32,000 nt of DNA, taken from contig NC_020304.1 of NCBI RefSeq assembly GCF_000341395.1, positions 690,001 through 722,000 on the forward strand, in the 5' to 3' direction. Positions 8,994-31,592 of this stretch are shown piece by piece (position 1 is the stretch's first letter; every line of letters starts with the position of its first letter). Origin of the DNA: Desulfocapsa sulfexigens DSM 10523 (GTDB lineage: Bacteria; Desulfobacterota; Desulfobulbia; Desulfobulbales; Desulfocapsaceae). The notes under the pieces are model-generated. The model had not been told where the DNA came from, did not search any database, and saw nothing but the letters and a program-made list of their open reading frames with translations. The translations under genes and the position numbers were made by a program.

Positions 8994-9311
8994 ATGGGAA
9001 AAAAAGGCAAGAAATATGAAAATGAAGAGATAGTAGATTGCAAAGCCTGCGATGGCGTTATTTCCCTTGGCTTTTACATGGGACGTGGTGATATCGTCTG
9101 CTGTGAAGAATGTGACGCTGAATATCTTATTAATTCGCGGAAGCCACTGCAACTGGAATTACTCAATGAAGATGATGACGACGATGTTTTCGACCCCATA
9201 AGTGATTATGACGACGACGACAATGTCGATGAGGATAGCGACGAAGACTACAACATAGGTGACTATGACTATGACGATGATGACGACTATAACGACGGTC
9301 GCTATGATTGA
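8994..9311 (+). CDS. LysW-like zinc-ribbon mini-protein, paralog 2, with a 46-residue poly-Asp/Tyr tail (105 aa)
   Basis: Strong RBS GGAGGAGAGG. Sequence: C-KA-CDGVISLGFYMGRGDIVC-C-EE-CDAEYLINSRKPLQLELL, then DDDDDVFDPISDYDDDDNVDEDSDEDYNIGDYDYDDDDDYNDGRYD. Confidence 0.8.
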   Translation: MGKKGKKYENEEIVDCKACDGVISLGFYMGRGDIVCCEECDAEYLINSRKPLQLELLNEDDDDDVFDPISDYDDDDNVDEDSDEDYNIGDYDYDDDDDYNDGRYD

Positions 9312-11052: not shown

Positions 11053-11098
11053 TAACAAAAAATCAAAAAAACAGTCAATATTACTTTTGGAGAACGTG

Positions 11099-11281
11099 AT
11101 GAAAACAAAAAGATGTACGGCCTGCGGTGGTGATATTCAGATTTATTATGACAACGAAGTGAGAGATGACGTTTACTGTAACGAATGCGAACGAGAATAC
11201 AGGATCATATCAATGCATCCAGTGAAGTTGCAGGCACTGGAAACAGACTATGACTACTGTTTTGAAGAAGACGAGTATTAA
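11099..11281 (+). CDS. LysW-like zinc-ribbon mini-protein, paralog 3 (60 aa)
   Basis: RBS GGAGA 5 nt upstream. Sequence: MKTKR-C-TA-CGGDIQIYYDNEVRDDVY-C-NE-CEREYRIISMHPVKLQALETDYDYCFEEDEY. The track start at 11036 overlaps the sigma-54 promoter, so I use the internal ATG. Confidence 0.8.
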   Translation: MKTKRCTACGGDIQIYYDNEVRDDVYCNECEREYRIISMHPVKLQALETDYDYCFEEDEY

Positions 11282-12934: not shown

Positions 12935-13171
12935 ATGTATAATCAGACAAATCGGCAAATGAAGACAAGAACAGGAAAAAGGTCCTTTACATATCAATAC
13001 CGTAGCTGCAGTTTCTGCTGCAGCGTTGACGGGCTTGTCGTTTCTGACTCTCAGCAGCAGGGCGATATTGTCTCCTGTCATGTCTGTGGTGGTCAGTATC
13101 TTATTCGCAGTATAGATCCGCTTAAGTTGCAGGCTCTGCCTTCACAGTCGAGCAACATGTCCTTTGGTTGA
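12935..13171 (+). CDS. LysW-like zinc-ribbon mini-protein, paralog 5 (78 aa)
   Basis: Sequence: C-SF-CCSVDGLVVSDSQQQGDIVS-C-HV-CGGQYLIRSIDPLKLQALPSQSSNMSFG. The N-terminus is basic. It starts 30 nt after paralog 4 with no promoter of its own, so it is probably co-transcribed. The RBS is weak, and an alternative ATG is at 12959. Confidence 0.7.
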   Translation: MYNQTNRQMKTRTGKRSFTYQYRSCSFCCSVDGLVVSDSQQQGDIVSCHVCGGQYLIRSIDPLKLQALPSQSSNMSFG

Positions 13172-15764: not shown

Positions 15765-16670
15765 ATGAAAATTTGTATTTTATCCAGAGATAAAAACCTC
15801 TACTCTACCTCAAAACTGGTCGAAAATGCGGAAAAACGTGGCCATGAAGTGCATGTGATTGACCCACTGCGCTGCTATATGAACATTACTTCTCATAAAC
15901 CGTCCATTCACTTCAAAGGTGAACCTCTGGAGGGCTTCTCTGCAGTTATTCCCCGTATAGGTGCCTCTATAACCTTTTACGGCACAGCCGTGGTAAGGCA
16001 GTTTGAAATGATGGGGGTCTATTCAGTGAACGAATCCGTAGCTATTTCCAGATCCCGGGACAAACTCCGATCCCTGCAACTCTTGTCCCGCAGAGGAATC
16101 GGTCTACCGGTGACCGGTTTTTCCCATTCGACCATGTATACCCAGGATCTTATCGATCTTGCAGGGGGTGCGCCGCTTGTTATCAAACTTCTGGAGGGTA
16201 CCCAGGGAATCGGCGTGGTTCTCGCTGAAACCAACAATGCAGCCGAAAGTGTTATTGAGGCCTTCCGGGGACTGAAACAGAATATCCTGGTACAGGAATT
16301 TATCAAAGAGGCTAATTCACAAGATATTCGGTGTTTCGTGGTTGGTGGCAAGGTGGTTGCTGCAATGATGCGTACTGGTAAGGTGGGTGATTTTCGATCG
16401 AATATCCACCGGGGTGGCAAAGCTGAAAAAATAAAAATCACCCCGGAAGAGCGTTCCACAGCCGTACGAGCTGCCAAAATAATGGGTCTCAATGTGGCCG
16501 GGGTGGATATCTTGCGTGCCAACCATGGCCCGGTTGTCATGGAGGTGAACTCATCACCCGGCCTTGAAGGCATCGAGGCGGCATCCGGAAAAAATGTGGC
16601 AGATATAATTATTGCCTTTATCGAAACCAATGCTCAGGAGGGAAAAACAAAAACCCGTGGCAATGGCTGA
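15765..16670 (+). CDS. rimK: RimK-type ATP-grasp alpha-L-glutamate ligase (ribosomal protein S6 modification protein family)
   Basis: 301 aa, colinear with E. coli RimK as I remember it: MKI.ILSRD..LYS...L...A..RGH.V...DPL.CYMNI; [21 protein letters not shown]; [16 protein letters not shown]; [31 protein letters not shown]; DFRSN.HRGG; [25 protein letters not shown]. Confidence 0.93.
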
Positions 16671-26229: not shown

Positions 26230-27489
26230 ATGGTACGCATGAGGCACTCTTTTCTGCTTTCATTTGCCCTTGGGGCAGGCTGGCTACTCTCTCCTGAAGC
26301 TCTGGTTATTGGAGGAAACAGTGCTGGCAATATGGGGTGGCTGGCATTTCCCGCGTTAGCTGTTGCAGCCCTTCTTTTAAGTATTTCCGGCAATCTCCTG
26401 ACCCGTTCGCAGCGTGCTGCAGAGCATGACAACAACTACCTTCTTCTCCGGTATATGACGGGAACAATCCCGGCAATCGGCCTTACTCTGGCCTCATCCA
26501 TCCCCCTTGTGATTCTGGCTGCAACGGCACTGCTTGTCACTTCCGGCTATACATTCAATGAAGTCTTTCTCTACTGGTTTCCCAACTTCGGGTTTTCCTT
26601 TTTGCTCCTGGCTCTATTGACTCTTCTCCAATTTTTTCCCGAAAAAGTTATTTTCCGGGCTCAGATCTTTCTTGTTCTTCTTACAGTAGGAGCTTTGCTC
26701 TTCCTCGCCCTATCAGGGATAGTAGGAACCGAGCCCCCCGTGTACGGGGTTTTGGAGCAACCCGGCAGTTTTTCTTCCGCCTCATCAGTCCTCATGCTTC
26801 TTCTCTTTACGGGCAGCACCTCAGGCGTGAAGACAAAACACCCTTTTCTAGTCCCCATTGCCGGGTTGGTATTTTTTTTCCTGTGGATTTGTGTATCTCT
26901 CTGCTATGTGAATCCGGAGCGTTTAGCCTCTTCAACCATCCCTTACATGACTGTGGCACGCACAATCATGGGAGATCCTGGTCGCCAGATAATGGGGGTG
27001 GCTGTTATCAGTGGCACCTGTGGGGCCATAACCGGTCTGATGCTTATGTGCAGGGCTATGCTTGCTGATATTGTAACGTCTAACAACGGAGACAGACTCG
27101 TCACCATACAACGCCGGGTATTTCCACTGCTGGTTGCCCTTGCAACGGGTATACTAATGGCCGAAGGACTCGCAGGCGACGAATTGCTTGAAACACTCCT
27201 GCGTGGCTCACTTATTCTCTGGCTTATACATCATAGCCTGCTCTGCCTCTCCGCTATCCTTACAAATCACAGGGTCCACCAGACTGTTCCCCTTGCCGGA
27301 GCCATGGCCACAACTCTTCTTATAGCGGCAGTTTTCATTCTTATCGTTACCAATCCACAGAGAAATGAGATAACATTCTTTATCCTTTCCATGCTTGGAA
27401 CCGGTGGTCTGCTTGCAGCCATCTGGATCTTTATAAACAAGATTACAGGCACAAAAACCACACCTAAACAAACGGAGAAAACCCTATGA
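26230..27489 (+). CDS. Polytopic membrane protein (about 11-12 TM), APC-superfamily permease-like
   Basis: 419 aa, hydrophobic throughout. Its stop overlaps the next gene's start (ATGA at 27486-27489). An alternative start is at 26239. The family assignment is only an impression from TM topology and G/A-rich helices. Confidence 0.65.
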   Translation: MVRMRHSFLLSFALGAGWLLSPEALVIGGNSAGNMGWLAFPALAVAALLLSISGNLLTRSQRAAEHDNNYLLLRYMTGTIPAIGLTLASSIPLVILAATALLVTSGYTFNEVFLYWFPNFGFSFLLLALLTLLQFFPEKVIFRAQIFLVLLTVGALLFLALSGIVGTEPPVYGVLEQPGSFSSASSVLMLLLFTGSTSGVKTKHPFLVPIAGLVFFFLWICVSLCYVNPERLASSTIPYMTVARTIMGDPGRQIMGVAVISGTCGAITGLMLMCRAMLADIVTSNNGDRLVTIQRRVFPLLVALATGILMAEGLAGDELLETLLRGSLILWLIHHSLLCLSAILTNHRVHQTVPLAGAMATTLLIAAVFILIVTNPQRNEITFFILSMLGTGGLLAAIWIFINKITGTKTTPKQTEKTL

Positions 27490-27881
27490 AAAAACTCACC
27501 CTTTTGCTACTCTCATTCCTTCTCCTCTGCGCAGCGCTACCGGCAATAGCCGGAGAGGTCCCGCTCATAAGCAAAGATGAGCTTAAAGCTCAACTCGACT
27601 CCGGAAATGTGGTAATCCTTGACGTTCGTTCAGGAAGAGACTGGAGCTCCAGTGAGTTTAAAATAAAAGGGGCAGTTCAAGCCCCTGGAAGTGACATTGC
27701 CAAATGGTCAAAGGACTACACAAAAGATCAACCCCTTGTTCTTTACTGCGCCTGACCCAACGAAGCGACAAGTGCCGGTCTGGCACGACAGTTGATGGCT
27801 GATGGATACACAAACGTCTCTGCACTGAAAGGTGGCTGGAGAGAGTGGTTCAGAGCAAAATACCCCACGGAAGAAAAATAG
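27486..27881 (+). CDS. Secreted rhodanese-domain protein with in-frame TGA (27753-27755) read as selenocysteine (131 aa, U90)
   Basis: Signal peptide MKKLTLLLLSFLLLCAALPAIAG. Rhodanese N-part VVILDVRS...EF..G.I.GA. The ORF stops at TGA inside the active-site loop LVLYCA-TGA-PNEATSAGLARQLMADGYTNVSALKGGWREWFRAKYPTEEK-TAG. The in-frame continuation supplies the missing rhodanese C-part (..A..L...Gy.nV..L.GG...W). A SECIS-like hairpin follows the TGA. Confidence 0.7.
27758..27794 (+). other. Candidate bacterial SECIS element
   Basis: GUGCC-GGUCU-GGCAC hairpin (27772-27786) with the outer pairing CAAC (27758-61) / GUUG (27791-94). The apical loop GGUCU is the same as the loop of the E. coli fdhF SECIS (GCA-GGUCU-GCA) as I recall it. 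The loop G-U lies 25-26 nt after the U of UGA, compared with 22-23 nt in fdhF. Confidence 0.6.
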
Positions 27882-27882
27882 C

Positions 27883-28875
27883 ATGGCATACCTCCTGGCA
27901 GCAGATATAGGCGGGACCAAAAGTGAACTGGCAATCTTTGACCTTTCACAGACACCGGATGCCCCGCCTCTTTGTCGCAGGCGTTATCACAACACTCTTT
28001 TCCACAATTTTGATACAATCCTCGCAGAATTCCTAGATTCAGCGAATTCTCCAACACCATCATACGCCTGTTTTGGGGTCGCTGCCGTTGTCCATAACGG
28101 ACGTGCAAGGTTTACCAATCGGGAATGGGTACTGAATGAAAAAGAACTTGAAAGCAGTTTTGGCTTCACCGGGGTCACCCTGATTAATGATCTTACTGCT
28201 GTCTGCAGTGGCCTCCCTTTTCTTGCAAAAAAAGAACTCTTCCAGATTCAACGGGGAGAGGTTGAAGAGCAGGGTATTCAGGCAGTAATTGCCCCAGGGA
28301 CTGGTCTTGGAGAAGGGTATCTCATTCGTCGGGATACATGCTTTTCTCCTCAGGGCTCAGAGGGCGGCCACTGTGATTTTGCACCTCTAAATCAAGAGCA
28401 ATCACAACTTCTCGGGTATCTGCAGCAAAAGCACAGCTCCGTCAGCTATGAACTCCTCTGCTCCGGCATTGGACTTCCCAATATTTTCGATTTTCTTGCA
28501 GCTACGGATATCGCCAGAGACCCTGACCATTTCAAACGAATCACCACAACAGCGGACAGGGCACCCGCAATATCAGAGGGAGCATTCGGTGACCGCAGGT
28601 GTCCACTATGTATAAAAACCTTCTCACTTTTTCTGGAAATCCTTGGTGCAGAAGCAGGTAACCTGGCTCTGAAAACCTATTCTACCGGAGGTTTATTTAT
28701 AGGTGGGGGAATTCTCCCGCGAATTGTGGAGCATGTTTCCTTTGCCCCCTTCCTCAATGCCTTCAGAAAAAAGGAAAAGATGACATCTCTTATGGAATCT
28801 ATTCCCATCCATCTTATTTTGAAAAATGACGTGGCTCTTTTTGGTGCAGCCAGTTATGGCTATCAGTTTTTTTAA
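27883..28875 (+). CDS. glk: Glucokinase (Glk family)
   Basis: N-terminal LLAADIGGTKSELAIF (ATP-binding DIGGT). C-terminal GGLFIGGGILPRI, and ends ...LFGAASYG. I prefer the ATG at 27883 over the track start at 27832 because the upstream 17 codons overlap the rhodanese continuation. Confidence 0.88.
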   Translation: MAYLLAADIGGTKSELAIFDLSQTPDAPPLCRRRYHNTLFHNFDTILAEFLDSANSPTPSYACFGVAAVVHNGRARFTNREWVLNEKELESSFGFTGVTLINDLTAVCSGLPFLAKKELFQIQRGEVEEQGIQAVIAPGTGLGEGYLIRRDTCFSPQGSEGGHCDFAPLNQEQSQLLGYLQQKHSSVSYELLCSGIGLPNIFDFLAATDIARDPDHFKRITTTADRAPAISEGAFGDRRCPLCIKTFSLFLEILGAEAGNLALKTYSTGGLFIGGGILPRIVEHVSFAPFLNAFRKKEKMTSLMESIPIHLILKNDVALFGAASYGYQFF

Positions 28876-31019: not shown

Positions 31020-31592
31020 ATGACCAGGACACTATGTAGACCCGTATTCATCTTAGCTTTGACATTCTTCTGCTTCTCACTTGCCACACCTCTCATTGCT
31101 GCAGAAGTAGGCAAAGGGAAAATACCTGAAGATCAACTTGCAAAATCCTATAAGAAACTTGACTGGGGTGTTGCTATCTGGGACACCGACGAAGCTGTGG
31201 CCAATCTGCAAAAGGGAGAAAATACACTCTGGGTGGATACACGTCCGGAAAGCTTCTTTAAAAAAGGTACTGTAAATGATGCCGTTTTACTCATTTACAA
31301 CAAAAAAGGAATGGAAGAAAATACACTCACCCCGGAATCACTGGAAAAGGCTCTTGCCGATAAGGGGCTTGCCAAGGATCAGGCAACCATCGTGTTTTTC
31401 TGTCAGGGACCTAAATGTCACCGCAGCTATAACGCCAGTTTTGCTGCTGTTACCGAATGGGGTTATTCTCCCGAGCAGATTGTATGGAACCGCGAAGGCT
31501 ATCCCTTCCTCTTCAAAAAAGTACAGGAAGATGCCAAACTGAAGCGTAAAGCAAAACGCTATATCAGTGACGCCGGTGTGAAGCAACTGTAA
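31020..31592 (+). CDS. Periplasmic rhodanese-like domain protein (Cys form)
   Basis: Signal peptide ...ATPLIAAE. Rhodanese fold motifs LWVDTRPESFF..G.V..A and active-site loop VFFCQGPKCHRSYNA, then GY...IVW...GYP. Confidence 0.8.
   Translation: MTRTLCRPVFILALTFFCFSLATPLIAAEVGKGKIPEDQLAKSYKKLDWGVAIWDTDEAVANLQKGENTLWVDTRPESFFKKGTVNDAVLLIYNKKGMEENTLTPESLEKALADKGLAKDQATIVFFCQGPKCHRSYNASFAAVTEWGYSPEQIVWNREGYPFLFKKVQEDAKLKRKAKRYISDAGVKQL

Follow-up and report, generated by a model that had tools for sequence, protein, structure and literature searches.

In bacteria, rhodanese-related proteins make up one of the families in which selenocysteine (Sec, U) has been predicted to replace a cysteine. Two reviews include the family, characterized by a CxU motif, among the predicted selenoproteins, both crediting bSECISearch work of 2005, and rhodanese-related selenoproteins have also been reported from the Sargasso Sea (PMC1088965) and from the Olavius symbiont metagenome, in which eight such genes were found, a UxU variant among them (PMC1976440). 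The family is also represented in NCBIfam by the equivalog model NF041203 ("rhodanese_LYCAU, rhodanese-related (seleno)protein"), which has a cut-off of 115 bits. The present analysis concerns a 32,000-nucleotide stretch of the genome of Desulfocapsa sulfexigens DSM 10523 (contig NC_020304.1, positions 690,001 to 722,000 of the forward strand), hereafter the window, in which a short rhodanese reading frame ends at a TGA codon and is continued in the same frame beyond it. An earlier inspection of the letters alone (the original prediction) had proposed a selenocysteine rhodanese at this place and had stated that rhodanese-related sulfurtransferases are among the computationally predicted bacterial selenoproteins, a statement with which the literature agrees. 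The evidence assembled below makes it very probable that positions 27486-27881 form one gene, encoding an exported selenoprotein of 131 residues with a rhodanese domain, of the LYCAU/CxU type, with UGA read as Sec and a hairpin just downstream serving as the selenocysteine insertion sequence (SECIS).

The window gene is an instance of this described and curated selenoprotein family, and it adds nothing new on the family itself or on the decoding of Sec. When the TGA is read through, the product, with U entered as C, matches NF041203 at 177 bits (E 1e-52, profile positions 6-126 of 126), while the 89-residue fragment obtained by stopping there reaches 92 bits and lies under the cut-off. The family motif L-Y-C-A-U, the last residue of which is either Sec or Cys, is present as ...LVLYCA-TGA-PNEATS. 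In motif, size and N-terminal signal peptide the protein is like a family whose members alternate between Sec and Cys; no difference is apparent at the sequence level, and the public record alone stops at the UGA. The UxU variant of the Olavius algarvensis delta-symbionts belongs to the same family and has the same loop, but carries Sec at the first position, where the window gene has Cys (C-A-U) (PMC1976440). Among the metagenome loci collected here, one (L061, JAAUYD010303612.1) reads TAC TGA GCC TGA followed by PNE, a double-TGA UxU form that matches the Olavius variant. Other Sec rhodaneses, namely form 1 (UxxS), forms 2 and 4 (UxxG) and TsoB (UxxxxU, NF045694), share the rhodanese fold and carry their Sec within or close to the active-site loop, but differ from the C-A-U of the window protein in Sec context and in architecture; against the TsoB model, which describes a rhodanese/DsbD fusion and has a cut-off of 805 bits, the window protein scores 29 bits.

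The open reading frame that starts with the ATG at 27486, nine nucleotides behind a GGAG, runs to the TGA at 27753-27755 and yields 89 amino acids ending in ...DQPLVLYCA. This product is 100% identical to the public entry AGF77192.1 / UniProt M1P671, named "Rhodanese-related sulfurtransferase". Beyond the TGA the same frame remains open for 41 codons, PNEATSAGLARQLMADGYTNVSALKGGWREWFRAKYPTEEK, until a TAG at 27879-27881. Comparison with the Pfam Rhodanese profile (PF00581) demonstrates what is at stake in the choice between the two products: the 89-residue form spans 2-69 of the 102 profile positions, the C-terminal third of the rhodanese fold being absent, while the read-through form covers positions 2-101 of 102 (E 9e-17) and thereby completes the domain. 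The profile coverage confirms two claims of the original prediction, that the domain is truncated at this TGA and that the 41-codon continuation is its missing C-terminal part. The third, that the longer frame packs tightly against the glucokinase gene glk, also holds, with a single base between the TAG and the glk ATG at 27883. The GenBank/UniProt entry is almost certainly wrong, cut at the Sec codon; the public annotation would be too short because the TGA encodes selenocysteine.

Conservation of this arrangement was followed in genome loci from Desulfocapsa, Desulfofustis, Desulfopila, Desulfobacula, Syntrophobacterales and other Desulfobacterota metagenome-assembled genomes (MAGs), taken from among the matches listed. 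In all 12 of the close genome loci among these matches TGA stands at the same codon, with 41-42 conserved codons between it and the next stop, and all 80 metagenome loci likewise have TGA at this codon. The original prediction had named homologs that end at the same place, with no conserved downstream frame, as an outcome that would speak against it; instead, every one of the 12 listed loci retains the frame. Its expectation of homologs with Y-C-x-C-P-x-E-A-S, and with a Cys at the TGA, is likewise supported. Specifically, four lineages of Cys forms (P0003, P0009, P0027 and P0030) have TGT or TGC in their DNA at the TGA codon, and full-length Cys homologs read YCAC-PNEATS (P0003, P0009, P0010) or YCAC (P0027, P0030). 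Alignment A2 shows no variation at Y87, C88, T95 and S96, or at position 90 beyond U or C. In addition, comparison with twelve relatives gives ratios of nonsynonymous to synonymous change (pN/pS) of 0.00-0.46 in the 41 codons downstream of the TGA and of 0.00-0.31 in 63 codons upstream of it. Purifying selection thus acts on the downstream frame as it does on the upstream one, and the similarity of the two ratios indicates that the downstream part is translated in this frame. It is the conservation of TGA, downstream frame and hairpin, over about 90 independent loci, that goes beyond chance.

A translated product does not by itself identify the residue inserted, and the TGA might instead be read as an ordinary amino acid, either as Trp through reassignment of the code or as Cys or Trp through near-cognate suppression. 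Database translations lend this some colour, given that W is printed at the Sec position in three homologs (P0002, P0004 and P0024). The one such form checked in DNA (P0002, locus L017) has TGA at this codon, however, and its W is therefore an artefact of gene calling. Within the window, TGA is the ordinary stop of 9 of the 19 genes and every Trp codon is TGG, which excludes a reassigned code; moreover, homologs without TGA have Cys and never Trp, and the codon is followed, at the right distance, by a conserved hairpin of the SECIS type. This explanation is accordingly regarded as extremely improbable. The printed W belongs to a wider pattern in the databases: about 100 clusters of homologs found by protein search are 88 amino acids long, those inspected all ending in ...LVLYCA, and a few full-length sequences accompany them. 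Because these clusters (P0005-P0120) stop at the same ...LYCA, with a few forms carrying W, the mis-annotation of the family appears to be systematic.

The second line of evidence is the small, GC-rich hairpin GUGCC-GGUCU-GGCAC, the stem of which begins after a gap of 16 nt from the TGA and the GGUCU loop 21 nt after it. The published model of bacterial SECIS (bSECIS) elements allows a stem of 4-16 bp, an apical loop of 3-9 nt with G in its first two positions, and a UGA-to-loop distance of 16-37 nt (PMC13188914). With a 5-bp stem, a 5-nt loop, a spacing of 21 nt and a loop G, the window hairpin has the published geometry. RNAalifold, applied to an alignment of 14 sequences, returned the same 5-bp helix, with 70 of 70 cells paired and double changes at two of the pairs; the observed covariation was reached in 4 of 500 column shuffles, and at slid control positions 23-54% of cells pair. 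Among 86 distinct TGA sequences all five pairs form in every one, through six stem variants (GUGCC/GGCAC, GCGCC/GGCGC, GUGUC/GGCAC, GUCUC/GGGAC, GCUCC/GGGGC and GCGUC/GGCGC), with the stem of the window being the commonest in the family. Position 2 of the loop is G in 86 of 86 sequences and is followed by G or U. Conversely, three of the four Cys-form lineages have lost the hairpin (2-3 of 5 pairs).

An experimentally defined counterpart is the SECIS of Escherichia coli fdhF, in which the G-U of the loop matters. It likewise consists of a stem-loop just 3' of the UGA, within the coding region, and has GGUCU at its tip. Direct comparison with fdhF of E. coli K-12 confirms the claim that the loop is the same and is shifted by one codon: counted from the U of UGA, GGUCU lies 21 nt away in fdhF and 24 nt away in the window. 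Conserved pairing in the window hairpin is confined to the 5-bp stem, without the conserved lower helix, long stem or bulged U of fdhF, and the hairpin thus departs from the fdhF type. The window element appears to work like the fdhF SECIS without being a copy of it.

The protein that would result is predicted to be exported, because its N-terminus resembles a Sec-type signal peptide; homologs have equivalent N-termini. With respect to fold, an AlphaFold2 model of the Cys homolog P0003 has the rhodanese fold (predicted local distance difference test score, pLDDT, 85.6); in it C-A-C follows the central strand and leads into a long helix, a stretch that is modelled with lower confidence. The top Foldseek matches of this model include Francisella 6mxv, the Wolinella polysulfide-sulfur transferase Sud (1qxn) and E. 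coli GlpE (1gmx), with E values of 4e-8 to 2e-5 and template modelling (TM) scores of about 0.67-0.69. These Cys-type single-domain rhodaneses share the fold of the window family, and Wolinella Sud is periplasmic. They differ from the window protein, to which they are 18-26% identical, in having one catalytic Cys in a loop of six residues, where the window protein has a C-x-U pair and the PNEATS segment, and two residues more than loops of the GlpE type. In the family-profile alignment to 6mxv, position 90 falls on the canonical catalytic Cys with no gaps, while in the alignment to 6pfz and in one pairwise alignment to 6mxv it is Cys88 that falls there, with a two-residue insertion. As either Sec90 or Cys88 is thus placed on the catalytic Cys, the Sec would lie in the active-site region. 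The claim that the TGA replaces a loop Cys stands to the extent that Cys homologs align at this codon, which may be the canonical catalytic position or the one two residues after it.

A mechanism that unites these features can be proposed. Upon reaching the UGA, the ribosome would decode it as selenocysteine, with the hairpin recruiting SelB together with Sec-tRNA(Sec), and translation would continue for the 41 codons to the TAG and so complete the rhodanese fold. The mature protein would probably be periplasmic, with Cys88-Ala-Sec90 between the central beta-strand and the next helix. There, Sec90 may take up sulfane sulfur (or selenium) as a Se-S adduct that Cys88 resolves through a selenenylsulfide, giving a sulfur-transfer or redox relay rather than a plain thiosulfate:cyanide sulfurtransferase, and the protein would probably act jointly with the APC-type permease encoded directly upstream. 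Selenenylsulfide chemistry between Sec90 and Cys88 is suggested as the most likely, given the CxU motif and the fact that most selenoproteins have a redox character; the literature searched contains no biochemical data on the enzyme activity of the LYCAU family.

A number of observations weigh against this account. Firstly, the hairpin is unremarkable as an isolated structure: single-sequence folding of 27753-27812 gives a minimum free energy (MFE) z-score of -0.19, which is not significant, and the core hairpin is weak at -6.8 kcal/mol. A stretch of 50 nt counted from the UGA reaches -11.4 kcal/mol, the MFE criterion for bSECIS elements being -7.5 or lower, with outer pairs that are not conserved. 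Secondly, Rfam returned no SECIS or other RNA family, either for the whole window at gathering thresholds or for 27700-27900 at E values up to 10. Thirdly, the closest Cys form (L014, from a Desulfatitalea sp. MAG, gene 169-573, with TGT) keeps GUGCC-GGUCU-GGCAC intact, so that presence of the hairpin does not strictly require TGA; the locus seems to have switched recently from Sec to Cys, or from Cys to Sec, its SECIS being either a "fossil" or pre-adapted. Fourthly, none of selA, selB and selD is found in the 32-kb window by Pfam and NCBIfam annotation of its 19 genes, and a scan of the window found no tRNA, hence no tRNA-Sec (selC). Fifthly, the literature searched yielded no data on selenium incorporation in the LYCAU family. 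Finally, the catalytic assignment is ambiguous, since Sec90 or Cys88 may be the canonical Cys and the P0003 model does not decide between them, and what is proposed on chemistry and on a tie to the permease is inferred.

The points that concern the hairpin would be accommodated if the gene encodes a selenoprotein but the hairpin is a by-product of the conserved T-S-A-G-L-A peptide, the true recoding signal being located elsewhere or being of another kind. In keeping with this are the short and weak core, the lack of a conserved lower stem, the Cys homolog that retains the hairpin, and the mention in reviews of bacterial SECIS elements that lie outside the model. Codon choice is where the two explanations part, and here constraint is observed at synonymous sites that a peptide would leave free. 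All 80 Ala codons of the stem are GCC, while the Ala three codons upstream is spelled GCC (25), GCA (11), GCG (7) or GCT (4). The Ser codon is AGT in 81 of the 86 sequences and AGC in 5, and never TCN, and codon 9 ends in G in all 86. Furthermore, Ser AGT occurs only with GCA or GGA, and AGC only with GCG or GGG, a perfect covariation. Pairing is also kept through changes of amino acid, as in GUCUC/GGGAC and GCUCC/GGGGC, and has been lost in three of the four Cys-form lineages. A by-product is thus given a slim chance. The hairpin 27772-27786 is preferred as the SECIS, and the proposal of a SECIS-like hairpin downstream of the TGA is upheld on the combined strength of bSECIS geometry, covariation and synonymous-site constraint.

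The points that concern the decoding machinery bear upon a different alternative, namely that the locus is a pseudogene or a truly truncated gene in which the TGA terminates translation, for example where Sec machinery is lacking or has been lost, so that the 89-residue fragment alone is made. The public annotation of 89 amino acids and the lack of a tRNA-Sec within the window speak in its favour. The D. sulfexigens genome paper does not mention selenium (PMC3739170), and the literature searched contains nothing specific on the Sec machinery of this species. Against termination, the 41 downstream codons are intact, end in a family-typical stop and are under purifying selection even relative to the closest relatives; the hairpin is likewise intact and has the commonest sequence of the family, and the fragment would be left without the C-terminal third of its fold. 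Desulfocapsaceae are, moreover, among the most selenoprotein-rich bacteria recorded, with one genome of this group standing among the ten richest in BSepDB, at 56 genes (PMC13326102). Given this richness, and a downstream frame that is both intact and selected, loss of the Sec machinery in D. sulfexigens is unlikely, and a pseudogene or truncation is accorded a chance slimmer still than that of a by-product hairpin. Decoding of the UGA as Sec thus remains the preferred explanation of the locus, whose features and immediate neighbors are collected in Table 1.

Table 1. Features of the predicted selenocysteine rhodanese locus and its two neighboring genes (window positions; CDS, coding sequence)
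Feature	Position	Strand	Remarks
Divergent APC-superfamily permease, 419 aa	26230..27489	+	Assigned by family profile versus AdiC; upstream partner (putative)
Selenocysteine rhodanese (predicted), complete CDS	27486..27881	+	131 codons and TAG stop; NF041203 match
Predicted Sec-type signal peptide, MKKLTLLLLSFLLLCAALPAIA/G	27486..27551	+	KK n-region, hydrophobic core, A-x-A site
Cys88 codon TGC, first Cys of the C-A-U motif	27747..27749	+	Invariant in alignment A2
In-frame TGA, predicted selenocysteine codon 90	27753..27755	+	Conserved across loci; TGT/TGC in Cys forms
Core bacterial SECIS candidate, GUGCC-GGUCU-GGCAC	27772..27786	+	Stem 27772-27776/27782-27786, loop 27777-27781
Predicted true stop TAG of the selenoprotein gene	27879..27881	+	Homologs have equivalent ends, ...PVEEK and stop
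Glucokinase glk	27883..28875	+	TIGR00749, 242 bits (cut-off 225)

Of the two genes that flank the rhodanese, it is the upstream permease that appears to be its partner. The TGA of the permease gene overlaps the ATG of the rhodanese gene (ATGA). The permease protein itself has no match in Pfam or NCBIfam; at the family level, a profile hits AdiC, a transporter of the APC type, at E 2e-5, and among 20 homologs that are more distant, 6 match PF13520. Of the 65 Desulfobacterota loci that are informative on this point, in which 900 nt or more of DNA precede the rhodanese gene, 50 have a permease homolog immediately upstream of the Sec-rhodanese and on its strand, the least similar of these homologs being about 30% identical. 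The pairing is not mentioned in the literature searched. It is conceivable, and is put forward here as a tentative suggestion, that the CxU Sec-rhodanese, once exported, and the permease together constitute a dedicated two-gene system that captures and converts a small sulfur or selenium compound and moves it across the inner membrane. The downstream neighbor, glk, was considered as a functional partner and rejected, because it adjoins the rhodanese gene only in 13 close Desulfocapsa-like loci.

Elsewhere in the window, no further recoded gene was identified: all frames with an internal TGA were listed and six were inspected, the continuations of which look non-coding, and Pfam and NCBIfam place none of the 19 window genes in another selenoprotein family. 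A second exported rhodanese-like protein is encoded at 31020-31592 on the forward strand (190 amino acids, with a signal peptide and the CxxxxC motif FFCQGPKCHRS). Because of a weak match to the rhodanese part of the UxxxxU protein TsoB (NF045694, 29.5 bits), it may be a Cys counterpart of the TsoB rhodanese domain. Three small paralogous zinc-ribbon reading frames also lie on the forward strand, at 8994-9311, about 11080-11278 and about 13000-13170, and share the pattern CxxC...CxxC followed by Y-x-I-x-S-x-x-P-x-x-LQ-x-L. At least two of them have acidic C-terminal tails, that of 8994-9311 being very acidic; the product of 8994-9311, the only one of the three scanned, has no Pfam match. As a RimK-type ATP-grasp gene is located near these frames, at 15765-16670, a carrier-ligase relation resembling that of LysW and RimK is conceivable.

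Taken together, these data have their main value in the correction of an annotation, that of AGF77192.1 / M1P671 and, with it, those of the approximately 100 homolog clusters cut at the same codon. Beyond existing knowledge the locus offers one lead, and a modest one, to the function of the LYCAU family, in the form of its conserved permease partner; should the proposed two-gene system prove true, its hosts would be sulfur-cycling anaerobes. The D. sulfexigens genome paper names nine rhodanese-related sulfurtransferases as candidates for a part in sulfur disproportionation (PMC3739170). The present gene may be among these nine, one of which may then be, instead of a fragment, a periplasmic selenoenzyme.

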